NCBI GenBank assembly: GCA_965541585.1 | Contig: CBEUCH010000029.1 | Location: forward strand, 1 to 22,665 | Direction: 5' to 3' | DNA length: 22,665 nt | Source of the DNA: an uncultured bacterium | GTDB taxonomy: Bacteria > Zixibacteria > MSB-5A5 > UBA10806 | Translations under genes and position numbers: made by a program | In this document: positions 222-20,172 of the stretch, one piece after another | Numbering within the stretch: position 1 is the stretch's first letter | Layout: the number at the start of each line of letters is the position of its first letter | Notes under the pieces: model-generated | The model's database searches: none | What the model was told of the DNA's origin: nothing | The model's input: the letters and a program-made list of their open reading frames with translations, nothing else

Positions 222-294
222 GCCACTGTAGCTCAGATGGTAGAGCAGCTGATTCGTAATCAGCAGGTCAGCGGTTCGATCCCGCTCGGTGGCT
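222..294 (+). tRNA. tRNA-Thr (anticodon CGT), CCA not encoded
   Basis: Acceptor stem GCCACTG/CGGTGGC, D-arm GCTCAGATGGTAGAGC, anticodon arm CTGAT-TCGTA-ATCAG with CGT in the loop, T-loop GGTTCGATCC. Confidence 0.97.
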
Positions 295-3647: not shown

Positions 3648-5297
3648 ATGAAAAAGATGTTTTCCCACAATGCAGGCTGCAATATATTGTCAATATCTGT
3701 TACTGATGCCGGAAGAAGCCTCTACGTGTTATGCATCATATTCATAATGCTATCTTTTTTGAGCAATGTGGCAAACGGGACGCAATTGAAACCGCGCCAT
3801 ATTCCTGAGAAGCCGGCCGGTACGGTCCTGGATGACCGGCATGATAGAAACAATATCAGTGTGAAATTCTCAGATGATCTCGATATAGGGATCGGCGTTT
3901 TTGGCTATCCTGTTGATCGTTCCGGTTCATCTTTGCAATCGGATGAAGCGCTCAGGTTATTGGAGGCAATCAATCGAGACGGAGGAGGCTGGTTTCGGGC
4001 CACCGGCGCTGATGAGGAAACCATCGACAAAATGCGAACAACCGCTCAAGATAATCTGAGCCGCGAGATCGCCGACATGAATAATTATTTTATACTTTCA
4101 GTTCCGGACCATGAGAAAACCCAGGATTGGATTAACCGGCTAAATGCCCTGGTAGATATCGAGATGGCTCGGCCGGTTTATTTGCCGCCGCCGCTGCCAT
4201 TGCCGGGAGATTACCAGGATCTTCAGGGTTATCTGGAGCCTGCGACCACCGGCATCGATGCCATCTGGGCCTGGGCATTGCCCGGGGGAACCGGTAACAA
4301 TGTAACCATTTGCGATGTTGAATTAAACTGGAACAGTAACCACAACGATTTGCCAAGCTTTCCATGGTGGGTTCCCCCCGGCTATACCTGGGGCAACTGG
4401 GGATATAATACTGACCATGGAACGGCGGTACTTGGTGAGATGGTGAGCCTTAACAATGGTTGGGGTACGACCGGCGCCGCCTATGGAGCCGGCGCCGCAG
4501 TGGCACCGTCTTATTTGAATAATGCCTGGGTTCCTTACGTTGCCATACAATATGCGGTAACTCAGCTTTGGGAGGGAGATGTAATTCTAATAGAACTGCA
4601 AACCTGGGGTCCGGGCAGCGGTATGGTGCCCATCGAATGGGAGGTGCCCAACTATGCTGCAATCGTGGCCGCAGTTGGGAGTGGCATACACGTTGTCTCA
4701 GCTGCGGGCAATGGTAATGAGGATCTCGATGATCCGATTTTTAACCAGGGCCATGCGCCGTTTTTGCCGGAGAATAACTCCGGCGCCATAATGGTCGGGG
4801 CGGGCGCCGCCCCCGCTGGATTCGGTGGCTCGGATACCGAACGTTCCCGTCTCAGTTTTTCCAACTACGGTTCACGCGTGGATCTCCAGGGATGGGGCGA
4901 ACGCGTGATGACTACCGGTTATGGAGACTATTACAACAGCGAAGGTATCAATTATTATTATACGAACGGTTTTGGAGGAACATCATCGGCATCTCCGATC
5001 GTAGCATCGGCGGTCGCGATCTACGAGAGCGTAATGGAGGTTCAGACCGGTTCAGTCGTCGATCCTGCCACCATGCGGACGGTATTGAAAAATACCGGCT
5101 CCCCTCAGCAGGCGGGGAATTATCCCATCACCCAGCATATCGGTCCCATGCCAAATCTTCGGGCCGCATTGGAAGAATCTCAAGAGGTCCCCACACTCAA
5201 CGAGTGGGGGATGATCGTCCTAGGGTTATTGCTTCTGGCCGCAGGGACGGTATCTGTTATTCGCAAGAGGAAAGTCGTATTTAGCAAAGCTGCTTAA
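3648..5297 (+). CDS. S8 (subtilisin-like) serine peptidase with IPTL-CTERM anchor
   Basis: Catalytic motifs in order: ICDVE (Asp), DHGTAVLG (His), AAGNG (oxyanion Asn), GTSSASP (Ser). N-terminal hydrophobic segment and prodomain. C-terminal VPTLNEWG + TM + RKRK. Confidence 0.92.
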   Translation: MKKMFSHNAGCNILSISVTDAGRSLYVLCIIFIMLSFLSNVANGTQLKPRHIPEKPAGTVLDDRHDRNNISVKFSDDLDIGIGVFGYPVDRSGSSLQSDEALRLLEAINRDGGGWFRATGADEETIDKMRTTAQDNLSREIADMNNYFILSVPDHEKTQDWINRLNALVDIEMARPVYLPPPLPLPGDYQDLQGYLEPATTGIDAIWAWALPGGTGNNVTICDVELNWNSNHNDLPSFPWWVPPGYTWGNWGYNTDHGTAVLGEMVSLNNGWGTTGAAYGAGAAVAPSYLNNAWVPYVAIQYAVTQLWEGDVILIELQTWGPGSGMVPIEWEVPNYAAIVAAVGSGIHVVSAAGNGNEDLDDPIFNQGHAPFLPENNSGAIMVGAGAAPAGFGGSDTERSRLSFSNYGSRVDLQGWGERVMTTGYGDYYNSEGINYYYTNGFGGTSSASPIVASAVAIYESVMEVQTGSVVDPATMRTVLKNTGSPQQAGNYPITQHIGPMPNLRAALEESQEVPTLNEWGMIVLGLLLLAAGTVSVIRKRKVVFSKAA

Positions 5298-7348: not shown

Positions 7349-8125
7349 ATGAACGGTAAAAGTATATTATTAGCGGCTATTTTCTTGCTGGTCATCCCGG
7401 TATATAGTGCGGTTGCACAGGAGGTGGGTGCATGTTGTTCGCCGGATGGATCCTGCAATGAGATGACCGAAGAGGAATGTTTATCCGGCGGCCGTACCTG
7501 GATGGGTGCAGGGGTGGAGTGTCTCGGGGACGGGAATGGTAATGGGTTCGATGATACATGTGAGGAGCTTCCGGGGGCGTGCTGCTTTACAGACGGCACT
7601 TGCGATAATCTGAGCGGGCCGGATTGCGTGGCGGCTAACGGTATGTATCGGGGGCCTGCAACAGAATGCCTTGGCGATCAAGATGATAACGGAAAAGATG
7701 ATGCCTGCGAGGAGCCGTTCGGTGCCTGCTGTTTCTTCGATGGGTCCTGCGCGTTGGAAGTCCAGGCGAACTGTGTATCAGCGGGCGGTTTTTATTGGGG
7801 AGACGACTCCGAGTGTTATGGTGACGGGAATGAAAACGGAATGGATGACAAGTGCGAAGAGTTGCCGGGTGCATGCTGCTCAGCCGGGGGTTGCTCAGAG
7901 ATGCTGGAGGCGGATTGCATAAATGCCGGCCGTGAATGGATGGGTCCTGAGACCATATGCCTTGGGGACAATAACGGCAACGGAATTGATGATGCCTGCG
8001 AGGATCCGGTGGAGATCCCAACTCTCTCCGAATGGGGGATGATCGTTATGATGTTATTGCTGCTGGTTGCCGGAACGATTGCGGTTGTGAGGAGAGGGAA
8101 GCCGGCTTTGATTAAAAAGATATAA
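7349..8125 (+). CDS. IPTL-CTERM protein made of four Cys-rich 'GACC' repeats
   Basis: Signal peptide ending AVA. Four ~49-aa repeats GACC..DG.C.......C...GG...G....C.GD.N.NG.DD.CE. C-terminal IPTLSEWG + TM + RRGK. Confidence 0.88.
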   Translation: MNGKSILLAAIFLLVIPVYSAVAQEVGACCSPDGSCNEMTEEECLSGGRTWMGAGVECLGDGNGNGFDDTCEELPGACCFTDGTCDNLSGPDCVAANGMYRGPATECLGDQDDNGKDDACEEPFGACCFFDGSCALEVQANCVSAGGFYWGDDSECYGDGNENGMDDKCEELPGACCSAGGCSEMLEADCINAGREWMGPETICLGDNNGNGIDDACEDPVEIPTLSEWGMIVMMLLLLVAGTIAVVRRGKPALIKKI

Positions 8126-8298: not shown

Positions 8299-11200
8299 AT
8301 GAGGCGACAAGTTTTCTTTATCCGGGCATTCATAGGCTTTATTATATCTACTTTGCCTGCCTCGGCCACCATAATCAACATCCCGGGAGATTACCCCACG
8401 ATTCAGCAGGGGATTGACGCCTCCGTTGACGGCGACACCGTATTGGTTCAGCCGGGGACTTACGCAGAGAACATCAATTTCAACGGGCACAGTATTGTGC
8501 TGGGATCGCTGTTTTTGACCACCGGAGATACATCATATATCTCATCGACTGTCATAGATCGTGGCTCACCAGGTTCGGTAGTAAAAATTGAGAATGGAGA
8601 GGACGAATCAACACAGCTTGTAGGATTCAAGATTACTAACGGAACAGCGAATGACGGCGGCGGCATATATTGCCACAGTAGCAGTGGCACAATAAGAAAT
8701 AACATTATAAAAGAAAATGGCATAGGCGGCGGTTTCGGTTACGGAGGTGGCATATACAGCAGAAATTCGAGACTTCTAATAAAAGACAACTATATTTCCA
8801 GCAATTACGCGAACGCCGATGAAGGTACTGGTGGCAGCGCTATATTTTGCCGTTATGATACAGGCACAGTCATAATCAATAATACTATTGTCGAGAACAC
8901 TATAACCAGTATCTGGGGATCTGACGGGGGAGCTATTCTGATTTACTCATCAGATTCCATAACCGTGATGAACAATACTATCAGCATGAATTTCGGGGGA
9001 GGACTGAAAATTGGTAGTTCAAACGTAGAAGTGTTAAACAATATCATCCGGGAGAACACTTTCTATGAGATAGACATTTCAGGAGGTGATGTTAACGTGA
9101 CATATTGCGACGTGCGGGGGGGGTGGCCCGGTGAGGGGAATATCGGTCTCGATCCATTATTCGTAGATTTCGAAAACGGCAATTATCAGGTATGTGCGCA
9201 ATCACCCTGCATAGATGCCGGCGATCCGGATATACTCGATCCGGACGGTACGAGATCGGATATCGGCGTATTCTATTATGATCACATCGAATGTGCTTTA
9301 GGTTATCGCTGGTATGTTGCAACATCCGGCGACGACGAGACGGGCGACGGCTCTCTGTTAAATCCATTCAGAACAATACAGCACGCCCTCAATCGATCAT
9401 TCAATAGCGATACCGTGATTGTGGAAAGCGGTACATATTCAGAGAATATTGTCATAGAAGATAAAAGCATCGTATTGACATCGAATTTCACATTTTCGGG
9501 AGACGAGGTCGACATACAGAACACGATAATTGACGGTGGATCGGTGGGCAGCGTTCTTTATCTGGAAAACTGCGGGAGCGCAATGGAAATCGCCGGGTTT
9601 ACGATAGGCAATGGTTTTTCAGACTACGGGGCGGGGCTCTACTGCTCATATTCCCCTGTAACGATAAGGGATAATATAATAAGCCAGAATTCCGCTTTTT
9701 CAGATGGCGGCGGATTATATCTGAGCCAATCAGAGGCGGTTATTATTCACAATATTATTGATGGCAATACGGCTCAGGTGTATGGGGGTGGCATTGAGTG
9801 TGAGGATTCGGATGCGACGATCCACAACAATGTAATATACGGAAACTCGGCCTACTCAAGAGGCGGAGGGCTTTCTGTTAATGGATCCAACCCGGAATTG
9901 ACCAACAATATATTATGGGAAAACGCAGCCCCGAATAACTCCCAGATTTATTCCTGGGGTTCCAGCTTCCCGGTCATTACTTTTTGCGATATCCAGGGAG
10001 GCTGGGGAGGAGAGGGTAATATTGACATTGACCCGCTGTTTAGAGATTCCGATAATGGAGACTTCCATTTGATGTCTATAGATTGCGGCGATCCCTATAC
10101 TTCACAATGTGTCGATGCGGGGCATCCGGAAACTCTCGACAGCTTTTTGGCTTGCTCCCGCGGTCTGGGAACCATCATGAGCGATATCGGTGCCTATGGC
10201 GGCGGGGATAGACACAGGACTATTATTAACATTCCGGCCGATTATCCCACCATCCAGCAGGGTATCGACGCCAGCCTCGACGGTGACACCGTTCTGGTGC
10301 AGCCGGGGACTTATTATGAGAATATTAATTTTAGCGGGCATAATATAAAACTGGCCTCGTTGTATTTCACGACCGGGGACAGTTCGTATATTTCCAATAC
10401 GATTATAGACGGCAATTCTCTGTATTCAGTGGTGAAATTCGATCATGGTGAAACAGACCAGGCCTCGCTTATCGGGTTCACAATCCAAAACGGGCAGGCA
10501 GCCAAAGGAGGCGGCATAGCCTGTTACGAATCCAATCCGACCATCAGCGATAATATAATCGTTGACAATACCGCTTACGGCTCGATCCCCTCAGCGGGCT
10601 ATGGAGGGGGCATCTATGTTGAGAATTCCGATCCAGTTATCAGCGGCAATGTGATCATCAGCAACGCAAGCATAAACGTCCATGATTGGGGAAGGGGTCT
10701 CGGGGGCGGTATCTACTGCACCGGTTCCAGTCCGGTAATAAACGGAAATATAATCATGGAAAACATCTGCACATACTCTGGATATTCCGAATATAGTACC
10801 GGAGGGGGGATTTACGGGATCGATTCTCATCTTCTCGTATCAGGAAATCTGATATATGCAAACTCTGCATATTCAGGGGCTGGTATATATTGCGACAATT
10901 CCGTCCTTGAAATTACAGGATCCACAGTGGCTTTCAATATAGGCAGCGGGATTGCCTGCTTAAATGGGTCGATCATTACCCTGCTAAATTCGATAGTATG
11001 GGGAAATCACGGGACCGGGGGAAGCCAAAACCTGTTTATATATCAAAGCCCGGAACCTCAGGTACGTTATTGTGATATCGGCGAGGGCTGGGAAGGCGAA
11101 GGGAACATCGATCAAAACCCGCTGTTTCTAAGCCCTTTGAATGGCAATTACAATATATGTTCTCAATCGCCCTGTATTGATAGCGGAGATCCGGCGTTGC

Positions 11201-12783
11201 AGGACCCTGATGGCTCTCGCAGCGATATCGGCTTCTTTTATCCGGAACATCCCGGCTGTTTCAATGGAGACAAATGGCATGTTTCGGTTTCCGGCGATGA
11301 CGAATACGGGGACGGAAGTGAATCAGATCCATTCCGAACCATACAGCACTCTCTCAATGTTGCGCTTCACGGCGATACGATCATTGTGCACAATGGCACC
11401 TATGTTGAGAATGTGATTTTCGGCGGCAAGATATTGCTGCTGGCCTCGGAATATTACTATTCTAATGATTCTCTGGATATCTATGATACGATAATTGACG
11501 GTAATCATGATACTTCAACGGTGATATTTAAATACGCCGAGGATACCACCTCGGTCATCAAAGGCTTTACCATAACAAATGCTTCTGCAACGGGTATTTG
11601 TTGTTTGACCTCAAGTCCTACGATAGTCAACAATAGGATTGTCGGCAATTCCGGATACCTGGGAGGAGGAATTTCGTGTCGTAACAGATCTAACGCCATC
11701 ATCAGAGATAACCGAATCGAAAACAATAATTGCCTTTTGGGTGGGAGCTCTTCCGGTAGCGGTGGAGGGATATTTTGCTACAGTCACTCTATTCCCAGGA
11801 TTGAAAACAATTACATTGTTGATAATATCTCCGCAAACCACGGAGGCGGAATAGCATGTTATTATATGTCGGATGCTTATATTTCCGGAAATTCAATTAT
11901 TAATAACTCCACTGACTATGCCGGGGGCGGTATCAAGTTATTCGAATCTGATCCCAGGATAACAAATAATATCATTGGAGGAAATTCGGGGCATATGGGC
12001 GGTGGCATTAATGCCTTGCACTTTGAGGGGATTTTAAGCGGCAACATAATTCACAGTAATTATGCTGCGGTCGACGGGGGAGGAATGTGGTTCGGGGGTA
12101 ATGCCGTGCCTGAGTTAGCCAACAATACCTTCTATGGAAATGAAGCGAATAGATGGGGTGGAGCAGTATACTGCTATTATGGAAGTCCAGGTTTTGTCAA
12201 TACGATATTCTGGGCCGATTCTGCCCCCGGTGGCGGCCGTGAAATATATGGGCCCGTTACTGCTACGTATAGCGACATCGCAGGAGGGTATGAGGGCCAA
12301 GGCAATATAGACTGCGATCCGGAATTCTGCGATCCCATAAATGGGGACTTCCGTCTGGGGGATAATTCTTGCTGTATCGGCGCGGGCGAAGGCGGTGTCG
12401 ATATCGGCGCGCTTGGCGCCGGATGCGAGCCGTGCGCCTATACACCGGGCGATTGCGACCACAACGGTATCCCCCTCGAACTGGCCGATGTTATGGCGAT
12501 GATAGGAATGTATAGAAATATGGTTGAACCATTTTACACCTGCTATTGTCCGAATCATGGAAGCAACTTCGCCCCTGAGGCCGATCCCAACGGCAATTGC
12601 GTCGCTCTCGAGCTTGGCGACGTGGTCAGGGAGATCGGGGCCTACAGGGGATCTGCCACGGCAGAGGGTTGCATAGATTGCCCGGGATCGCTCAGAATCG
12701 CTCCCGACAAAAAAGAGAAACCGCTGATTGCGCCATCCCTGAAAGCAAAGGCGAAGATAAGTAGAAGTCAAACAGTAGAATAA
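8299..12783 (+). CDS. Large multi-module beta-helix surface protein with a C-terminal dockerin-like domain
   Basis: Signal peptide ending ASA. Four beta-helix modules in A-B-A-B order: A begins TIINIP(G/A)DYPTIQQGID, B begins W(Y/H)VxxSGDDExGDGSxxxPFRTIQH. Each closes with a GNIxxxP..F cap. C-terminal YTPGDCDHNG...ADPNGNC...YRG...CPGS. Confidence 0.88.
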   Translation: MRRQVFFIRAFIGFIISTLPASATIINIPGDYPTIQQGIDASVDGDTVLVQPGTYAENINFNGHSIVLGSLFLTTGDTSYISSTVIDRGSPGSVVKIENGEDESTQLVGFKITNGTANDGGGIYCHSSSGTIRNNIIKENGIGGGFGYGGGIYSRNSRLLIKDNYISSNYANADEGTGGSAIFCRYDTGTVIINNTIVENTITSIWGSDGGAILIYSSDSITVMNNTISMNFGGGLKIGSSNVEVLNNIIRENTFYEIDISGGDVNVTYCDVRGGWPGEGNIGLDPLFVDFENGNYQVCAQSPCIDAGDPDILDPDGTRSDIGVFYYDHIECALGYRWYVATSGDDETGDGSLLNPFRTIQHALNRSFNSDTVIVESGTYSENIVIEDKSIVLTSNFTFSGDEVDIQNTIIDGGSVGSVLYLENCGSAMEIAGFTIGNGFSDYGAGLYCSYSPVTIRDNIISQNSAFSDGGGLYLSQSEAVIIHNIIDGNTAQVYGGGIECEDSDATIHNNVIYGNSAYSRGGGLSVNGSNPELTNNILWENAAPNNSQIYSWGSSFPVITFCDIQGGWGGEGNIDIDPLFRDSDNGDFHLMSIDCGDPYTSQCVDAGHPETLDSFLACSRGLGTIMSDIGAYGGGDRHRTIINIPADYPTIQQGIDASLDGDTVLVQPGTYYENINFSGHNIKLASLYFTTGDSSYISNTIIDGNSLYSVVKFDHGETDQASLIGFTIQNGQAAKGGGIACYESNPTISDNIIVDNTAYGSIPSAGYGGGIYVENSDPVISGNVIISNASINVHDWGRGLGGGIYCTGSSPVINGNIIMENICTYSGYSEYSTGGGIYGIDSHLLVSGNLIYANSAYSGAGIYCDNSVLEITGSTVAFNIGSGIACLNGSIITLLNSIVWGNHGTGGSQNLFIYQSPEPQVRYCDIGEGWEGEGNIDQNPLFLSPLNGNYNICSQSPCIDSGDPALQDPDGSRSDIGFFYPEHPGCFNGDKWHVSVSGDDEYGDGSESDPFRTIQHSLNVALHGDTIIVHNGTYVENVIFGGKILLLASEYYYSNDSLDIYDTIIDGNHDTSTVIFKYAEDTTSVIKGFTITNASATGICCLTSSPTIVNNRIVGNSGYLGGGISCRNRSNAIIRDNRIENNNCLLGGSSSGSGGGIFCYSHSIPRIENNYIVDNISANHGGGIACYYMSDAYISGNSIINNSTDYAGGGIKLFESDPRITNNIIGGNSGHMGGGINALHFEGILSGNIIHSNYAAVDGGGMWFGGNAVPELANNTFYGNEANRWGGAVYCYYGSPGFVNTIFWADSAPGGGREIYGPVTATYSDIAGGYEGQGNIDCDPEFCDPINGDFRLGDNSCCIGAGEGGVDIGALGAGCEPCAYTPGDCDHNGIPLELADVMAMIGMYRNMVEPFYTCYCPNHGSNFAPEADPNGNCVALELGDVVREIGAYRGSATAEGCIDCPGSLRIAPDKKEKPLIAPSLKAKAKISRSQTVE

Positions 12784-12830
12784 ACCGGACCATTTTCCCC
12801 GCATCTCTAATATACATACCCAGAAAAAGC

Positions 12831-12858
12831 TTGACTTTATGAGGGATTAAACTATCTA
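12831..12858 (+). promoter_or_regulatory. Putative promoter
   Basis: TTGACT-16 nt-TATCTA. Confidence 0.5.
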
Positions 12859-12983
12859 TTATTAAGGTAGTTTAGATTATTCTCCACACGTTGCTTCAAC
12901 TGTCTTGTCAATGGGAAGAGCATGTGAGAGTTATTAGTAAAACAATCATATTATTTTCAGGTTCAGCAAGGAGGCTTGTAAGC

Positions 12984-15900
12984 ATGAAACAGTGTATAAG
13001 AATTCTACTTATGGCAACGGTGCTCATATCGGGCCCGTTCTGGCTCGGCTCTACGGCATTGGCCCAGGACCCGTGTATTGCTCCGGACAATGGCAGCGGC
13101 ACGGTCGATCTTCCGGCTGATTGTCCGTATATTGCTCCTCTTGAGCCTATGTATATCATAAATGGACTGCCACCTAACACAACGATTGAGCTGCAACCAA
13201 TTCTCGAGAATTTCATCAGTGTTGTCAGGAATCCGGGAGGCCCCCTAGGCGGTCAGATCCTGCAATTCGATGCGACTCTTGATCTTACTGTGTCGGGCAC
13301 CGGCGATCTTGCAGGTTTTAATCGCCATCTTTTCGTGCCGGTTTCCCTTGAGGTTCACACTGCGCCGCGTAATCCCGGCGATCCGGTACAGCTATTCCTT
13401 GCCGACATGTTTCGACTTACAGGAGAGCTATTCGGCGATCCCGATTTCTGCACGTTCCGGGTCAGGGGGGGTACCGACCATGGTCTGCCGAGCCCGGGCC
13501 AAATGACTTTGACCGATCTTAGCGACGGGACTTTCAATGTCGATAGCTTTTTTGATGTCTCCTATGAGATAGAGTTTGAAGGTTGCCCCGGGTCTATACT
13601 GGAAGATATGAATGGAACAACGGAAGCTACGGTCCTGTTGAAACAGGGTAGCGGCGAAATCCCGGCCTTAGGCGCGTGTTGTAAACCTGACGGTTCATGT
13701 CTTGTATTAACGGATATTTCTTGTCAGAGTATCGGCGGTACTTATTTTGGCGACGACTCCGAATGCTCAAGCGATGGCGACGGTGACGGTTACGATGACT
13801 TATGTTATCCCCAGGGTACTTGCCTGGCGCCGGATAATGGCAGCGGCACGGTCGATCTTCCGGCCGACTGTCCATATACCGCCCCTGATGGACCGATGCA
13901 AATCATTAACGGGCTGCCGCCGGGAACGACGATTGAGTTGGATCCTATTTTCAAGGATTTCATCAATGTTGTCAGGAACCCGGGAGGCCCGTTGGGCGGT
14001 CAGATCCTGCAATTCGATGCGACTCTTGAACTCGATGTGACGGGTACCGGGGATCTCAACGGTTTCAGCCGCTACCTTGCGGTGCCAATTTCATGCGAGG
14101 TTCATACCGGACCTCGAAATCCGGGTGATCCTGTGCAGACGTTTCCGTCCGTGATGTTTCGGTTTGAAGGTGAACTATTCGGCGATCCCGATTTCTGTGT
14201 GTTCCGGATTTGGGCAGGCGATGATTTTAGCCTCCCGAGTCCCGGTTATTTCACATTGACCGAGCTGCCCGGAGACCAGTTCAATGTCGACAGCTTCTTT
14301 GACGTTATCTATCAGATTGAGTTTGAAGGCTGCCCCGGTTCGGTTCTGGACGGTTATGCGGGCACCACGACCGGTGCTACACGTCTGAAGCAAGGATCAG
14401 GTGATGCCCAGACTCCTCCGGTTGGGGCCTGCTGCGGGCTTGATGGTCTATGCGGAGTAACAACAGAAACATTCTGCAGCAATTTGGGCGGTACGTATTT
14501 CGGAGATGACACCGAATGTTCCGGCGACGGCGATGGTGACGGCTACGATGACTTATGCTTTCCGCAAGGTACCTGTTTGGCCCCCGACGACGGCAGCGGC
14601 ACGGTCGAGCTTCCGGCCGACTGTCGATATACTGCTCCCTACGAACCGATGCTTATCGTTAACGGTTTGCCTCCTAATACGACTATTGAACTGGAACCTA
14701 TCCTTATGGATTTTAATTGCGACGATCCGCATGTGCTTTGCTCAATGCCGTTATCACCGGGGGAATGCGAGACTCCGGGTGGCTCGATGGGTGGTCACGG
14801 TCATTGCTTTGAAGCGACGCTTGATCTTACTGTGACCGGCACCGGCGATCTCGCGGGCTTTAATCGCCACCTGGCGGTACCGATAATGTGTGAGGCTCAT
14901 ACCGGCCCTCGGAATCCCGGTGATCCGATACAGTCATTTGCCACCGACATGTATCGGCTCTCCGGCGAGCTTTTCGGCGATCCTGATTTCTGTACATTCA
15001 GGATTACGGGAGGAACAGACTTCGGCCTGCCGAGTCCCGGTCAGGCTACCCTGGAGGAATTGGGCGGGGGCCTTTACAATGTAGACAGCTTTTTTGACGT
15101 CATATATCAGATCGAATTTGAGGGTTGTCCCGGGTCGGTTCTGGATGGTTATAGTGGAACCACCACTGCTATGGTTCGCTTGAAGCAGGGTAGCGCCGAG
15201 GGCTCTGTTACCGGCGCCTGCTGCAGAACTGATAATACATGCCTGGTGGCATCGGAGTCGTATTGCCAGACCATTGGCGGTACGTATTTCGGTGATGACT
15301 CCGAATGTCTGGGCGATGACGATGGAGACGGTTATGATAATCTCTGTTTTGAGCCTGGCACCTGTCTGGCTCCGGACAACGGCAGCGGCACTGTTGATCT
15401 TCCTGCTGACTGTCCATATACCGCCCCTGATGAACCGATGCAGATCATTAACGGGCTGCCGCCTGAAACGACGATCGAGCTGGATCCTATTTTCACGGAT
15501 TTCTTTTGCAGTGAGCAGACAGATTGCTCATTGGCGATGCCGCAGGGTAAATGTGAAGATGCCGGTGGCTCACTTGGGGGCCATTATCATTGTTTCGAGG
15601 GCGCTCTATATCTGGATGTTTCGGGGACGGGCTCTCTCGAGGGATTCAACCGCTACCTGGCGGTGCCGATTTCGTGCGAGGTTCATACCGGCCCTCGAAA
15701 TCCCGGCGATCCTATACAGTCATTCCCCACTGACATGTATCGGTTTTCCGGCCAGCTATTCGGCGATCCCGATTTCTGTACGTTCAGGATAACCGCTGGC
15801 ACAGACTACGGCCTGCCGAGCCCTGGTCAAGCAACGCTGACTGATCTTGGCGATGGGAATTTCAATGTCGATAGCTTCTTTGATGTCACCTATCAAATTG

Positions 15901-16109
15901 AGTTTGAGGGCTGCCCCGGCTCGGTTTTAGATGGATACGCGGGCACTACCACTGCCACAGTCCGTTTGAAACAGGGCGTAGAAGCGGCTCCGCAAGAGAT
16001 ACCCACGCTCTCCCAGTGGGGGATGCTGATATTGGCGTTCATATTGTTAGCTTTCGGGACGGTTGCGGTAATTCGCAGAAGGAAGGTCGAATTACGCAAG
16101 GTTGCCTGA
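12984..16109 (+). CDS. IPTL-CTERM protein with four ~190-205-aa 'DSFFDV' domains separated by three GACC Cys-rich modules
   Basis: ATG 12984 after AGGAGG (12969-12974) and a signal peptide ending ALA. Repeats CxAPDxGSGTVxLPADC...FGDPDFC...VDSFFDVxYxIEFEGCPGS...LKQG start near 13074, 13821, 14574 and 15363. C-terminal IPTLSQWG + TM + RRRK. Confidence 0.88.
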   Translation: MKQCIRILLMATVLISGPFWLGSTALAQDPCIAPDNGSGTVDLPADCPYIAPLEPMYIINGLPPNTTIELQPILENFISVVRNPGGPLGGQILQFDATLDLTVSGTGDLAGFNRHLFVPVSLEVHTAPRNPGDPVQLFLADMFRLTGELFGDPDFCTFRVRGGTDHGLPSPGQMTLTDLSDGTFNVDSFFDVSYEIEFEGCPGSILEDMNGTTEATVLLKQGSGEIPALGACCKPDGSCLVLTDISCQSIGGTYFGDDSECSSDGDGDGYDDLCYPQGTCLAPDNGSGTVDLPADCPYTAPDGPMQIINGLPPGTTIELDPIFKDFINVVRNPGGPLGGQILQFDATLELDVTGTGDLNGFSRYLAVPISCEVHTGPRNPGDPVQTFPSVMFRFEGELFGDPDFCVFRIWAGDDFSLPSPGYFTLTELPGDQFNVDSFFDVIYQIEFEGCPGSVLDGYAGTTTGATRLKQGSGDAQTPPVGACCGLDGLCGVTTETFCSNLGGTYFGDDTECSGDGDGDGYDDLCFPQGTCLAPDDGSGTVELPADCRYTAPYEPMLIVNGLPPNTTIELEPILMDFNCDDPHVLCSMPLSPGECETPGGSMGGHGHCFEATLDLTVTGTGDLAGFNRHLAVPIMCEAHTGPRNPGDPIQSFATDMYRLSGELFGDPDFCTFRITGGTDFGLPSPGQATLEELGGGLYNVDSFFDVIYQIEFEGCPGSVLDGYSGTTTAMVRLKQGSAEGSVTGACCRTDNTCLVASESYCQTIGGTYFGDDSECLGDDDGDGYDNLCFEPGTCLAPDNGSGTVDLPADCPYTAPDEPMQIINGLPPETTIELDPIFTDFFCSEQTDCSLAMPQGKCEDAGGSLGGHYHCFEGALYLDVSGTGSLEGFNRYLAVPISCEVHTGPRNPGDPIQSFPTDMYRFSGQLFGDPDFCTFRITAGTDYGLPSPGQATLTDLGDGNFNVDSFFDVTYQIEFEGCPGSVLDGYAGTTTATVRLKQGVEAAPQEIPTLSQWGMLILAFILLAFGTVAVIRRRKVELRKVA

Positions 16110-16135
16110 TGGGTTAGTCATTCAGGAGAATTAGG

Positions 16136-16163
16136 AGGGGCTGTCCTTTGATAGCCCCTTTTT
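16136..16163 (+). terminator. Intrinsic terminator (IPTL-gene type)
   Basis: AGGGGCTGTC-CTTT-GATAGCCCCT-TTTT. Confidence 0.8.
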
Positions 16164-16360
16164 GCATCTGTTCGATGAGCAAATCGGATCCTGTTCCCCG
16201 AAAAGTGTTTTCATCAGAATTGATGATTTCCTTCAATCACCTGCGCGAGGCCGCCGGCGGGGCCGCAAAAAGATGAACCGCATGCGGTTTATTATTCGCT
16301 TAATCCGATTAACCTGTTGCTACAGTTTCTCTTATTCGAGCGAGCGGTTCATTATTTTCC

Positions 16361-16388
16361 TTGACATTTAGTTGTCAATATCTATCTT
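16361..16388 (+). promoter_or_regulatory. Putative promoter with an overlapping inverted repeat
   Basis: TTGACA-16 nt-TATCTT; TTGACA-N6-TGTCAA inverted repeat at 16361-16378. Confidence 0.55.
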
Positions 16389-16649
16389 AAACTTTAGCAC
16401 AAGGTTGCGGAGATTGGCTCGGCATCCTTTTGGGATTCTTCAATGGGGACAGGTGACGTTGGCCTTGCAGGTTATTTGCTCGCTACTCCCCGACATTTTT
16501 AGTGTGTCAGGCTTTCTAACGATGTTTTGGTGTAAGAAGACGACTTCAAAACTACATATTGGGAAAAGCATCATAAATGAAGGAGCGCTTGCAAGTCGCT
16601 GGATTCAAATTTCAACAATAATTTGTGCTCCAACTGCGGGGAGGAACAA

Positions 16650-18425
16650 ATGAAAAGAGTCTATTCAGTTATTTTGGCGTCGCTGTGCTTGACGGCTGTG
16701 AGTTTTGCGCAGGCGCCTCAGATTGTATCGATTACACCATTGCAAAACGAACTTAATGTGGCTTTTGATGCCGACATATCGGTGACCTTCGACATCGATA
16801 TGGATGAAACGACCATCAATAACTCCACTTTCGTGGCTAATGCCAGATCCACGGGGCCTCATTCAGGCGCGATTGCATATGATGGCCCTACCAAGACCGC
16901 AACCTTTGACGCCCTGGAGGATTTCGAAGACGGGGAGGTGGTTACCGTTGTAATCACCACGGGTGTAGAATCCTCAGGAGGGGTTCCTCTCGATAACAGC
17001 TATGTCTGGTCCTTCACTATTATTGTTGCAGATGGCTCAGGTTACTTTACCCCTCGTTCCGTCCATCCGGTAGGCAACAATCCATCGTCTGTCTTTTCCG
17101 CCGATCTTGATGGCGATGGTGATTTTGATCTCATAACTGCAGACGGAACGTCCGACAATGTTTCGGTTCTCTTAAACGACGGCGACGGCAATTTTGCCGC
17201 TCGTTCGGTCTATCTGGTTGGAGATAATCCCTGGACTGTTTACGCCGCGGATCTGGATGGGGATGGCGACATCGACCTGGCAACAGCGAATATGTCTTCC
17301 AATAACGTATCGATTCTTCCAAACAACGGCGACGGCACGTTTGACCTGCAAGTTTCCTATCCGGTCATGGCCAATCCCTGGCCTGTTTTCGCTGCAGATC
17401 TTGACGGTGACGGCGATATCGACCTTGCCACCTCAAATGCGACGTCCAATAATGTTTCGATACTATTAAACAATGGCGACGGTACATTTGCCCCGCAATG
17501 GGCGTATCCGGCAGGCCCTGTGCCGATTTCGATATTCGCCGCTGACCTCGATGGTGATGGCGACATGGACCTGGCAACAGCGAATTTCGGCGCCAACAAT
17601 GTATCTGTTTTATTAAACGATGGCGACGGCACTTTTGCCTCCCCTACGACATATCAGGTAAGTTCTTTCCCTCGCTCTGTTATTGCCGCTGACCTTGACG
17701 TTGATGGGGATCTCGATCTCGCGGTTGCAAATGGCTCATCCCATACTGTATCGATTCTCGCGAATAACGGAGATGGAACCTTTGTGGCTCAGATTACGTA
17801 TCCGGTCAATACCGCTCCGGCCTCGGTATTCGCCGCCGACCTCGACGCGGACGGCGACCTCGACCTCACGACAGCAAATGCATCTTACAACAGCGTCTCG
17901 GTTCTCTTAAACGATGGCGACGGCACATTTGCCCCGCATTCAGACTATCCGACCGGCACAACGCCATACTCGGTGTTTTCAATTGACCTTGACAATGACG
18001 GGGATCTGGATCTCGCGACCGCAAACTGGGATGATCACGATGTCTCGTTTCTGCGAGGAGGGGGCGACTGCGTATATATTCCCGGCGATTGTGATTACAA
18101 CGGCACACCGGCGGAGCTTTTCGATGTCATCACGATGGTTGGCAACTATCAGGGCAATATACCGCCGGCCTATATCTGCAATTGTGATGCTAATCCTCCG
18201 GGCGATCAGTTCGCCGCTACAGCTGATCCCAACGGTAACTGTAATGCCCTTGAGCTTGAAGACGTCGTGACCGCAGTAGGCGTTTATAGAGGCACGCTGA
18301 CAGCAGCAGGCTGCCCCGACTGTCCCGGTTCATTCAGGTTTGCCCCTGATGGTGACGAGAAACTGTTGGTTACGCCCTTATTGAAATCAGAGATTGAAAT
18401 TGGTGACGATATAATAGTAGAATAA
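16650..18425 (+). CDS. Ig-like (SbsA/Big_5-type) domain + 7 FG-GAP/VCBS repeats + dockerin-like domain
   Basis: ATG 16650 after GGAGG and a signal peptide ending SFA. Ig-like region PQIVSITP...ISVTFDIDMD...YVWSFT. Seven ~49-aa repeats ADLDGDGDxDLATAN...VSVLLNxGDGTF. C-terminal YIPGDCDYNG...ADPNGNC...CPGS. Confidence 0.9.
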   Translation: MKRVYSVILASLCLTAVSFAQAPQIVSITPLQNELNVAFDADISVTFDIDMDETTINNSTFVANARSTGPHSGAIAYDGPTKTATFDALEDFEDGEVVTVVITTGVESSGGVPLDNSYVWSFTIIVADGSGYFTPRSVHPVGNNPSSVFSADLDGDGDFDLITADGTSDNVSVLLNDGDGNFAARSVYLVGDNPWTVYAADLDGDGDIDLATANMSSNNVSILPNNGDGTFDLQVSYPVMANPWPVFAADLDGDGDIDLATSNATSNNVSILLNNGDGTFAPQWAYPAGPVPISIFAADLDGDGDMDLATANFGANNVSVLLNDGDGTFASPTTYQVSSFPRSVIAADLDVDGDLDLAVANGSSHTVSILANNGDGTFVAQITYPVNTAPASVFAADLDADGDLDLTTANASYNSVSVLLNDGDGTFAPHSDYPTGTTPYSVFSIDLDNDGDLDLATANWDDHDVSFLRGGGDCVYIPGDCDYNGTPAELFDVITMVGNYQGNIPPAYICNCDANPPGDQFAATADPNGNCNALELEDVVTAVGVYRGTLTAAGCPDCPGSFRFAPDGDEKLLVTPLLKSEIEIGDDIIVE

Positions 18426-18600
18426 TTTTATGCCAGTTATTGACACTGCAATCCTCGCCGTTCCAAACCGGGGAGTTGCACGCTAAGGAAAAGATGTTCT
18501 GGTTGGAAATAAAAGTCGGGGAGAGAATTATCAGCGTACTATCCCCGTCAAAACTAATCATGATTTTAGCCTCAAACCTGACCTCGGCAAGGAGGAGGAT

Positions 18601-20109
18601 ATGAGAAGATTTCTGGTATCGGCCATAATTGTAACTATCTCCATAAACCTGGCGTTGGCACAGTCCAACAGAATAGTCTTCGGGCCGTTAGTAGGCGATG
18701 ACGCCGGAGTTATAACGGTGCGTGGCGGCGATGCTCTTGAGCTCGAGATGTGGGTCCGTACCGATCCCGGTAATCCGGCCCCGTTTATCGGCATAGCTCA
18801 TGGTCTGTTATCCGAGGATGCGATTATCAGCGAGCGCAACGGCGCCGTGATCGATCCGCTATTCGGCATGCCGAACTGGGAGATGGTCTTTGTCGATGGC
18901 CCATTCGTCCATAATCCGAACGATGCTGTTCCGATCCCTGAAGGATATACCAGCGAAGTGCAGAATGCTCTATTCGTGATATTCCAGCCGCCAGTCGGCG
19001 ACCCCCTGGATACCCAGGGAGAATGGGTTTATTACGGTTCATTCCTGGTGACGGTAAATCCGGGGGCACCCGGCGGCGATATATATTATCCGTTTTCAGA
19101 AGGCTGGTACCCGCACAGCGGAGAGGGGACAAGTTGGGCTTTCGAAACACCCCCGGGAGGCAACGTGGTGCCGGAGCAGGATTATGCTGGCCTGGATTTC
19201 CCGCCGCTGATCAATAAAGTTATCATCGGGCCCCGGGAGGGAGACGATGCCGGCGTATTGACTGTGCTTAACGACCAGGATATAGAAATCGATATCTGGG
19301 TCCAGAGCGATCCGGAAAATCCGGGGCCGATCTATGGAGTTCAACATGGCTTGATTTCCGATGATGTCATCATTGCCGCCCGCAATGGAGTTGTGCTTGA
19401 CCCCATTTATGATATGCCGGACTGGGAAGAGGTTTGGGTTGACGGGCCATTCACTCATAACCCTGATGATGATTTTCCTATCCCCGAAGGTTTTACATGT
19501 GAAATGCAGGGCGCCAGTTACACCGTGTTTAATCCTCCTGTAGGCGATCCTCTCGATACCCAGGGGGACTGGGATTACTACGGTTCGTTCTTGATGACTA
19601 CCAATACAGGTGTCCCGATTGAGGAAACATATTATCCTTTTTCGATGGGCTGGTATCCTGAAAACGGAGAGGGAACCCATTGGTCATTCGAGGACCCACC
19701 CGGAGGCCAGATCATACCCGATCAGAGTTACGGCGGTCTGTTCTTTACACTGGAGGGATGCGAATATGTACCGGGCGATTGCGATCACAACTCTGTCCCG
19801 CTGGAATTGACAGACATTCTTGCCATAATCGGCATGTACAGAGGTCAGATACTGCCGATATACACCTGTCCCTGCCCACCTCATGGAATCGAGTTTCTGG
19901 CAGAAGGTGACCCCAATGGCAATTGTACCGCCCTGGAGCTTGATGACGTCGTAATCGAGATAGGCGCTTACAGAGGAGACGTCACGGTATCAGGTTGCGA
20001 GGATTGTCCCGGTTCGATATGGCTGGGACCGGAAGGCCAGGAAAGCGGGGAGGCTGCTCCATCTCTGAAAACCAGGGTCAAGACCGGTGAGGGATCGACA
20101 GCCGAATAG
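18601..20109 (+). CDS. Secreted protein with two ~182-aa tandem repeats (possibly cohesin-like) and a dockerin-like domain
   Basis: Strong RBS AGGAGGAGG and a signal peptide ending ALA. Repeats start near 18667 and 19213 (xGPxxGDDAGV...WVxxDP.NP...PPVGDPLDTQG.W.YYGSFL). C-terminal YVPGDCDHN...GDPNGNC...CPGS. Confidence 0.85.
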   Translation: MRRFLVSAIIVTISINLALAQSNRIVFGPLVGDDAGVITVRGGDALELEMWVRTDPGNPAPFIGIAHGLLSEDAIISERNGAVIDPLFGMPNWEMVFVDGPFVHNPNDAVPIPEGYTSEVQNALFVIFQPPVGDPLDTQGEWVYYGSFLVTVNPGAPGGDIYYPFSEGWYPHSGEGTSWAFETPPGGNVVPEQDYAGLDFPPLINKVIIGPREGDDAGVLTVLNDQDIEIDIWVQSDPENPGPIYGVQHGLISDDVIIAARNGVVLDPIYDMPDWEEVWVDGPFTHNPDDDFPIPEGFTCEMQGASYTVFNPPVGDPLDTQGDWDYYGSFLMTTNTGVPIEETYYPFSMGWYPENGEGTHWSFEDPPGGQIIPDQSYGGLFFTLEGCEYVPGDCDHNSVPLELTDILAIIGMYRGQILPIYTCPCPPHGIEFLAEGDPNGNCTALELDDVVIEIGAYRGDVTVSGCEDCPGSIWLGPEGQESGEAAPSLKTRVKTGEGSTAE

Positions 20110-20144: not shown

Positions 20145-20172
20145 AGGGCTGTTGACTTCGGCCCTTTTTCTT
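20145..20172 (+). terminator. Intrinsic terminator
   Basis: AGGGCTG-TTGACTT-CGGCCCT followed by TTTTCTTT. Confidence 0.65.

Follow-up and report, generated by a model that had tools for sequence, protein, structure and literature searches.

The 22,665-nucleotide stretch analysed here (the window) covers positions 1 to 22,665 of contig CBEUCH010000029.1 (assembly GCA_965541585.1) from an uncultured bacterium of the phylum Zixibacteria. It encodes three predicted secreted proteins, a beta-helix protein, an FG-GAP protein and a tandem-repeat protein, which end in the same C-terminal module, composed of a Cys-rich core and a tail (Table 1). The original prediction took this module for a disulfide-stabilised dockerin variant followed by a tail of fixed length that would act as a separate export or processing signal, in effect a third sorting system alongside IPTL-CTERM and a C-terminal domain (CTD) resembling that of type IX secretion systems (T9SS).

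The shared unit is directly visible in the translations, where it spans 116, 118 and 116 residues, each time followed by a stop codon. In all three copies exactly 30 residues follow CPGS, with P5, E9, P15, L17, K18 and the terminal E recognisable, as had been described. Each window copy also contains the seven Cys reported as conserved (positions 1, 8, 37, 39, 56/58, 80/82 and 83/85), but the seventh, that of the GDC motif, is found in 21 of the 43 copies of the source genome and is not invariant across the family. The three cores are 55–59% identical, well past chance, and upstream of the module the host proteins are unrelated, with Pfam matches to beta-helix for the first, to Big_5 and FG-GAP for the second and to no family for the third.

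Across the source genome, a profile of the three units matches 43 open reading frames (ORFs) at E<1e-10, with the module at the C-terminus of every one. A crude, loose signal-peptide test was passed by 40 of these 43 carriers, compared with 347 of 881 control ORFs. None of the 43 bears a T9SS or IPTL ending, and the CTD motif is likewise found in 0/43. A T9SS-tailed paralogue (E<1e-20) nonetheless exists for 28 of 40 passenger bodies, those of all three window genes included: the beta-helix body is 42% identical to a T9SS-tailed paralogue and 40% identical to an IPTL-tailed one, and the FG-GAP protein is 58.6% identical over 461 aa to its T9SS-tailed counterpart. The profile matches 99 of the 121 genomes of the phylum at E<=1e-5, strong matches being confined to this order, and a dockerin query matched 22 of 31 relatives' genomes. 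One homologue, 58% identical, carries the NCBI name candidate division Zixibacteria, and the label of an ESM Atlas cluster also points to this phylum as the probable source.

Table 1. Features of the window that bear on the C-terminal module (positions in the window)
Feature	Position	Strand	Support
Secreted parallel beta-helix protein, 1494 aa, module at C-terminus	8299..12783	+	PF13229 E 5e-43
Dockerin core copy 1 (predicted), Cys-rich, 83 aa up to last Cys	12433..12681	+	AF2 mean pLDDT 83
Tail copy 1, 33 residues past last Cys (PGS + 30), predicted mostly disordered	12682..12780	+	
Secreted Big_5 + FG-GAP propeller protein (passenger), 591 aa	16650..18425	+	Pfam
Dockerin core copy 2 (predicted), Cys-rich, 85 aa	18069..18323	+	
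Tail copy 2, 33 residues, acidic variant	18324..18422	+	
Secreted 502-aa protein, predicted cohesin-cohesin-dockerin (adaptor-scaffoldin-like)	18601..20109	+	no Pfam family
Cohesin-like domain 1, 58% identity to domain 2, no Pfam or NCBIfam match	18664..19209	+	
Cohesin-like domain 2, predicted cohesin fold	19210..19758	+	AF2, Foldseek, wide structural search
Dockerin core copy 3 (predicted), Cys-rich, 83 aa	19759..20007	+	
Tail copy 3, 33 residues	20008..20106	+	
Terminator-like hairpin then T run, 3' of third gene	20145..20165	+	pattern match alone

The Cys-rich core and the cohesin-like domains

The AlphaFold2 (AF2) model of core copy 1 (mean predicted local distance difference test, pLDDT, 83) places helices at residues 17–27 and 61–71. 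In a wide structural search it aligns with the clostridial dockerin 2ccl_B over 61 residues with Z 9.4 and a root mean square deviation (rmsd) of 1.4 Å; the 14 top rows are all dockerins, and unrelated rows reach Z 2.3 at most. The best Foldseek rows are likewise dockerins, none of them down to E 0.001. At the sequence level, neither single-sequence nor genome-only profile searches against solved structures gave a match, and the family-wide profile of 49 rows alone succeeded, matching solved dockerins at E 1e-5. The PF00404 cut-off is passed by two of six family-level homologues, with three more matching below it, and the ESM Atlas returned weak matches for the module, including one cluster with 11% Dockerin_1.

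Across the 49 family rows the invariant columns are six Cys, G6, D7, D19, D51 and D63. The invariant Asp lie in two loops of the form GD/AD-x-x-x-N-G...D, each followed by a helix in the model, and the loops are one residue longer in this genus than in most family members; we infer from the sequence that the core binds Ca2+. The presence of individual Cys over 343 domains, whose kinship makes them non-independent, is most strongly associated for C39–C83 (phi 0.79), C56–C80 (0.75) and C1–C37 (0.53). The Cys are lost pairwise, and three disulfides are therefore predicted: the six invariant Cys probably form C1–C37, C39–C83 and C56–C80. The predicted fold, the bridging through family sequences and the pairwise co-loss of Cys all support the proposal of a disulfide-stabilised dockerin variant. 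On these models we class the core as a dockerin-fold variant that is not a PF00404 member by score.

The tandem repeats of the third protein offer a candidate partner. The best AF2 model of domain 2 (pLDDT 79.5) matches 3ul4_A in Foldseek at E 1.1e-5, and in the wide structural search it matches 4uyp_A and 6kgc_A with Z 13.1 and rmsd 2.6–2.8 over 142–143 residues, the top 12 rows all being cohesins (Z 10.9–13.1). Among 14 homologous proteins there are just two PF00963 matches, both below the cut-off and both at residues ~300–377, off the matched N-terminal domain. We predict from the models that these repeats, which the original prediction had not recognised as such, are cohesins that Pfam does not detect. 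With a signal-peptide-like start, two predicted cohesins, one predicted dockerin and no further domain, the protein would have the architecture of an adaptor scaffoldin, that is, secreted, non-catalytic and combining cohesins with a dockerin.

The source genome contains 26 such cohesin-like domains in 22 ORFs, 12 of which end in a Cys-dockerin and 10 in a T9SS tail. In another genus of the same family (g6), the cohesin-like proteins form a separate, diverged set, again ending in either a dockerin or a T9SS tail, and the dockerin is of that genus's own type. Among representatives the Cys-dockerin is internal in 15 of 154 copies, and in 13 of these 15 a Pro-rich linker and then a cohesin-type start motif come next. 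A complex prediction for domain 2 with dockerin copy 1 scored 0.13 against a mark of 0.32, with controls not folded, and is used for neither side of the argument.

Several loci elsewhere in the genome carry related genes. A tandem array of cohesin-like genes (contig C16:42371-59295), in which dockerin and T9SS endings alternate, lies ~12 kb from sprA (C16:24023-29938), and its 14-residue tails abut the start of the next gene. Three proteins of ~110 aa consist of a signal peptide and a Cys-dockerin alone (contig C3:21132-21494, C6:206744-207097 and C6:207926-208276); they are possible caps or competitors for cohesin sites. A 7,588-codon ORF on contig C13 (51430-74196) ends in a Cys-free dockerin and a Pro/Gly-rich tail that starts like the module's tail, and is flanked by cohesin- and dockerin-bearing T9SS genes. 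Outside the genus, contig C16 of the relative G010 bears a single dockerin of the source genus's type in a genome whose remaining copies differ in type, which may reflect horizontal transfer or mis-binning.

Tail length, loss and origin

The length of the tail, identical in the three window copies, is not fixed among their paralogues. Past the last Cys, the 43 genome copies have 1–5 residues in 17 cases, 9–15 in 10 and 28–34 in 16, with exactly 33 (CPGS + 30) in six, three of them the window's own. The same split into short, intermediate and full forms is repeated in the 30 best loci of each congeneric genome. Database homologues obtained with a tailed query, which favours tailed matches, have at most 6 residues in 45 of 116 cases, 7–27 in 19 and 28–34 in 52, with exactly 33 in 29. 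A tail-free family profile allowed 139 of 150 representatives to be scored; at most 7 residues are present in 64 of them, 8–26 in 39, 27–40 in 35 and 45 in one, with exactly 33 in five. A fixed 30-residue tail is thus rejected by a range of 1–34 residues among genome paralogues and 1–45 among the 139 representatives, and the length of 33 is the mode of the genus, not a rule. Contigs from an independent sequencing run cover the FG-GAP and third-gene tails with no indel listed; three of the five changes listed for the FG-GAP tail are silent. No RNA run was listed as containing the sequence.

Neither Pfam nor NCBIfam has a model that matches the tail, a point in favour of the original prediction; the ESM Atlas gave no usable match for it, and the T9SS CTD model (TIGR04183, ~70–80 residues) matches neither modules nor tails. 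In the AF2 model of copy 1 the block means of pLDDT over residues 91–116 are 65, 48 and 45, residues 101–116 averaging <50. The 46 full tails contain no hydrophobic helix (highest 15-residue Kyte-Doolittle mean 1.23, average 0.31). Other genera of the family have long tails of up to 31–38 residues, partly related in sequence; the sister family has tails of 1–36 residues with PxLK in 0/24, and in more distant families most copies viewed stop a few residues past the last Cys. C-terminal signals of the sortase, exosortase and rhombosortase types (PEP-, IPTL-, GlyGly- and MYXO-CTERM) combine a motif with a transmembrane helix and basic residues behind it, are found on all proteins of the sorted class and are portable without other domains. 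The tail differs from such signals in having no helix, in being absent from some carriers and in occurring in no intact gene without the core. As tail lengths run from 1 to 34 residues in the genome and the tail is full in 16 of 43 copies, a third sorting signal is not supported.

Loss of the tail can be followed at individual loci. Of 62 non-full genes, four still have recognisable tail DNA past an in-frame TGA or a frameshift, and two more strong tail-DNA matches in that set turned out to be intact 27-residue tails. Of the orthologues of the FG-GAP gene, that of G001 has an intact tail and that of G002, one of these four, a tail cut to 19 residues by a frameshift; the third-gene tail is full-length in both congeneric orthologues. 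At the codon that is AGA or AGG in 34 of 46 full tails, 14 of the 18 four-residue forms have a TGA stop, whereas only three of the 46 full tails themselves end in TGA. Programmed read-through of TGA in the short forms finds no support, since the lesions differ from gene to gene and a tail remnant is missing from most short genes. On a tree of the 105 cores, drawn from 85 columns and unresolved at many forks, the full-tail label changes 17 times, with at least 8 changes forced by well-supported branches. The cores of tail-less pairs stay conserved (proportion of non-synonymous differences 0.13, with synonymous sites near saturation), and no core column is significantly associated with tail presence after correction (best p 0.011, threshold 0.0003).

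Two other natures of the tail were considered and rejected. A DNA element does not agree with the distribution of changes, third codon positions being the most variable (0.48 vs 0.32 and 0.27), and by eye the DNA downstream of tails shows no common element except terminator-like hairpins. A portable stand-alone tag is rejected by a tail profile built without source-genome rows: up to E 0.6 it matches the 16 carriers that have a tail, two tail remnants lying past a stop or a frameshift, and a single orphan frame of 37 codons next to a decayed gene. No intact gene in the genome has the tail without the core, and wherever the tail is in frame with a core it is terminal. At contig C30:11571-11684, beside an apparently decayed dockerin gene, a short tail-like frame is intact and has an ATG and a Shine-Dalgarno-like sequence, so that the tail frame survives where the rest of the gene appears to have decayed.

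The start of the tail resembles that of the Pro-rich linkers behind internal dockerins, and a linker origin is therefore likely. A motif of two hydrophobic residues then Pro, within positions 3–14, is found in 8 of 15 internal linkers, 28 of 40 tails of the family and 23 of 46 tails of the genus, against 2.6, 9.0 and 6.5 in shuffled sequences. From these sequences, the tail most likely descends from a Pro-rich linker that joined internal dockerins to the next cohesin.

Docking, export and related systems

We consider it probable, on the models above, that the dockerin core, likely with three disulfides, plugs secreted passengers into T9SS-anchored cohesin-like domains, the tail being optional and not required for sorting. 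Such a docking system is more likely than a new export signal because predicted cohesins are present and because most of the 43 copies have a shortened tail or none. Passengers would be exported by Sec, after which the core would form its disulfides and fold with Ca2+. The cohesin-T9SS proteins would serve as surface anchors and cohesin-dockerin proteins, such as the third protein of the window, as adaptors by which the number of docking sites is raised. The cargo, docked directly or via adaptors, would be the beta-helix, FG-GAP and peptidase proteins. The first half of the tail (G-R-L-L-P-like) may pack against the dockerin or space it, and the basic P-x-L-K-x-K half may give a modest gain in stability or surface retention, large enough for some genes to have retained the tail while others lost it.

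A number of results weigh against this docking reading, some touching the domain assignments and others the optional tail. PF00404 matches none of 35 genome copies of the core and PF00963 none of 19 cohesin-like domains, so that both assignments in the window rest on models and profile bridging. The five AF2 models of the cohesin-like domain ranged in pLDDT from 45 to 80, and pilin domains score Z 10.7 against the cohesin-like model. The cohesin-like profile finds matches in 13 of the 31 relatives only, compared with the 22 reached by the dockerin query. The linker motif was defined post hoc, after the sequences had been seen.

Intact tails have a dN/dS (ratio of non-synonymous to synonymous rates) of 0.34 (bootstrap 0.29–0.41), compared with 0.195 for the cores of the same genes and 0.61 (0.46–0.82) for a simulated neutral control, the tail value coming from 14 non-independent pairs; by this measure they are under moderate purifying selection. 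Among the 46 full tails a PxLK-like motif is retained in 39 and a terminal D/E in 33, and the tail class is common to both partners in 36 of 44 reciprocal-best orthologue pairs. This selection, the motif, the terminal D/E and the sharing of class between orthologues show that the tail is more than junk. The net charge is positive in 37 of the 46 full tails but negative in seven, the window's FG-GAP tail among them, and these seven are at odds with a simple electrostatic role. Taking the sequences together, the ancestor of the genus had the tail, which is under selection in the genes that keep it and has been lost time and again by stops and frameshifts. The importance given to it by the original prediction stands as far as protein-level selection and its terminal position wherever in frame are concerned; tail-less copies that keep the core, and the lack of a hydrophobic helix, speak against it.

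The pattern of selection also bears on a tail acting in a subset of proteins as a cleavable or recognised signal, either a pro-peptide cut after the Arg of G-x-R or a mask delaying cohesin binding until export is done. The strongest constraint falls on the first 8 residues (dN/dS 0.26) and the PxLK region (0.23), against 0.67 at the end, which together with the modal length of 33 in the genus, the frequent PGSR, PGSGR or PGLRR ends of short forms and the lack of any library model would suit such a signal. Those short ends are, however, accounted for by one-base nonsense changes at Arg and Leu codons. The tail is also absent or truncated in 27 of the 43 copies and lost in single orthologues, no core column separates tailed from tail-less copies after correction, the sister family's tails of 1–36 residues are without PxLK, and no intact gene of the source genome has the tail without the core. 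We regard this explanation as quite unlikely.

The genome also encodes Pfam-type cohesins (contig C13:48159-51234 among their loci), on four T9SS-tailed proteins, so that the true partner may be a cohesin that Pfam does detect. The core would then be a dockerin-fold Ca2+ cap with another partner: these few Pfam-type cohesins only, a periplasmic target or, by self-association, the core itself. The failure of the cohesin-like profile to reach many dockerin-rich relatives and the one-residue insertion in the Ca2+ loops relative to most family members point the same way. Cohesin-like and dockerin types, however, vary in step from genus to genus and occur as fusions within single proteins, and 13 of the 15 internal dockerins directly precede a cohesin-type start motif, which makes another partner very unlikely.

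The secretion context raises the question of whether the dockerin might itself be the export tag. SprA and the PorV family are above cut-off in 31/31 genomes, and PorU is present in the source genome, which has at least 150 T9SS tails (TIGR04183; 150 matches in 150 scored of 187 candidates). PorV-family matches there number 20, nine of them above cut-off, compared with 13–23 in relatives, an unusually large shuttle family. Passengers could bind a cohesin-T9SS carrier in the periplasm and cross SprA as a complex, or be recognised by a PorV paralogue. In favour of such piggyback export, T9SS and IPTL endings are absent from all carriers although T9SS-tailed paralogues exist for 28 of the 40 passenger bodies; the 10 small proteins combining a cohesin-like domain with a T9SS tail, the size of the PorV family and the ~12 kb separating the main cohesin-like array from sprA also speak for it. 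Three secretin-containing type IV pilus or type II-like gene clusters would, however, provide an alternative exit, and by eye the PorV-family loci listed do not adjoin the window genes. We hold piggyback export to be unlikely, and equally so its combination with a tail serving as a removable mask that times docking, namely hitch-hiking through SprA on cohesin-T9SS carriers.

Compared with type I dockerins of clostridia and ruminococci (PF00404; 2ccl_B, 4fl4_A, 6kg9_A), the module has the same loop-helix duplication, Asp occupying positions 1 and 12/13 of the loop, and the same C-terminal position on many secreted proteins. It is ~15% identical to them and differs by six invariant Cys, loops one residue longer, a longer inter-repeat linker, a score below the Pfam cut-off, an optional Pro-rich basic tail and a host with type IX secretion; the cargo of its homologues comprises peptidase families (PF00082, PF01364, PF00246, PF00112 and PF01433) and adhesin-like repeats. 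For scaffoldins, adaptor roles are assigned to proteins with non-catalytic cohesin(s) and a dockerin and anchoring roles to those with a cohesin and a surface anchor (PMC12484212). The same domain combinations as here are found in Ruminococcus flavefaciens ScaC (5lxv) and Acetivibrio cellulolyticus ScaB/ScaC (4uyp), whose anchors are SLH or sortase motifs instead of a T9SS CTD; the cohesin here is ~10% identical to theirs and longer (183 aa), with at most three tandem copies and many single-cohesin paralogues.

The nearest published case is Ca. Stygibacter (Cloacimonadota), with a genome-inferred cellulosome-like complex of dockerin-tailed S8/C25 peptidases and a surface-attached cohesin scaffoldin (PMC8542988). 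There, a single 3,755-aa scaffoldin carries InterPro-detectable domains and carbohydrate-binding modules (PMC8542988), whereas the system described here would be built from small adaptors and anchors, dozens of them, with cohesins that Pfam does not see, dockerins rich in Cys and a tail that is optional. In the R. flavefaciens ScaA dockerin, an intramolecular clasp between the termini stabilises the Ca2+-bound fold (PMC3821032). That clasp is a non-covalent Trp-Pro stack; here the putative disulfides and the CPG end would do the same job through covalent links, with the tail beyond predicted to be disordered. A Chlorobium cohesin-dockerin pair is also described in a preprint (bioRxiv 10.64898/2026.03.19.712371). 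IPTL-CTERM (TIGR04174) and the T9SS type A CTD (TIGR04183) take the same C-terminal slot on paralogous passengers, and the tail differs from both in being dispensable, in having neither a membrane helix nor an Ig-like domain and in matching neither model. A search of the literature available found no publication on Zixibacteria dockerins, cohesins or type IX secretion, and one on dockerins and C-terminal protein sorting found nothing related.

If the docking reading is true, members of a large uncultured phylum put together cellulosome-like structures on their surface out of domains invisible to Pfam and NCBIfam, with type IX secretion, not sortase or SLH, providing the anchor. This raises the question of how ~40 signal-peptide proteins per genome without a T9SS tail reach T9SS-anchored partners; were the piggyback alternative true, it would amount to a novel form of type IX secretion, one linked to the assembly of cellulosome-like complexes. 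Small, disulfide-locked and lineage-specific dockerin-cohesin pairs could also serve as orthogonal parts for designer cellulosomes.

Besides the module-bearing genes, the window contains four IPTL-CTERM genes and two T9SS-tailed genes. In the IPTL-CTERM proteins encoded at 12891-16109 and 7349-8125, repeated GACC...C motifs precede DxDGDGxDDxC, which makes a second Cys-rich repeat of the Ca2+-loop kind; outside the IPTL end, Pfam matches nothing in them. At 3648-5297 lies the gene of a subtilase S8 protein with IPTL-CTERM, relatives' S8 proteins bearing the Cys-dockerin instead. A tRNA gene is located near the start of the window (222-294), and the 5' part of a 16S rRNA gene occupies the contig end (22106-22665).

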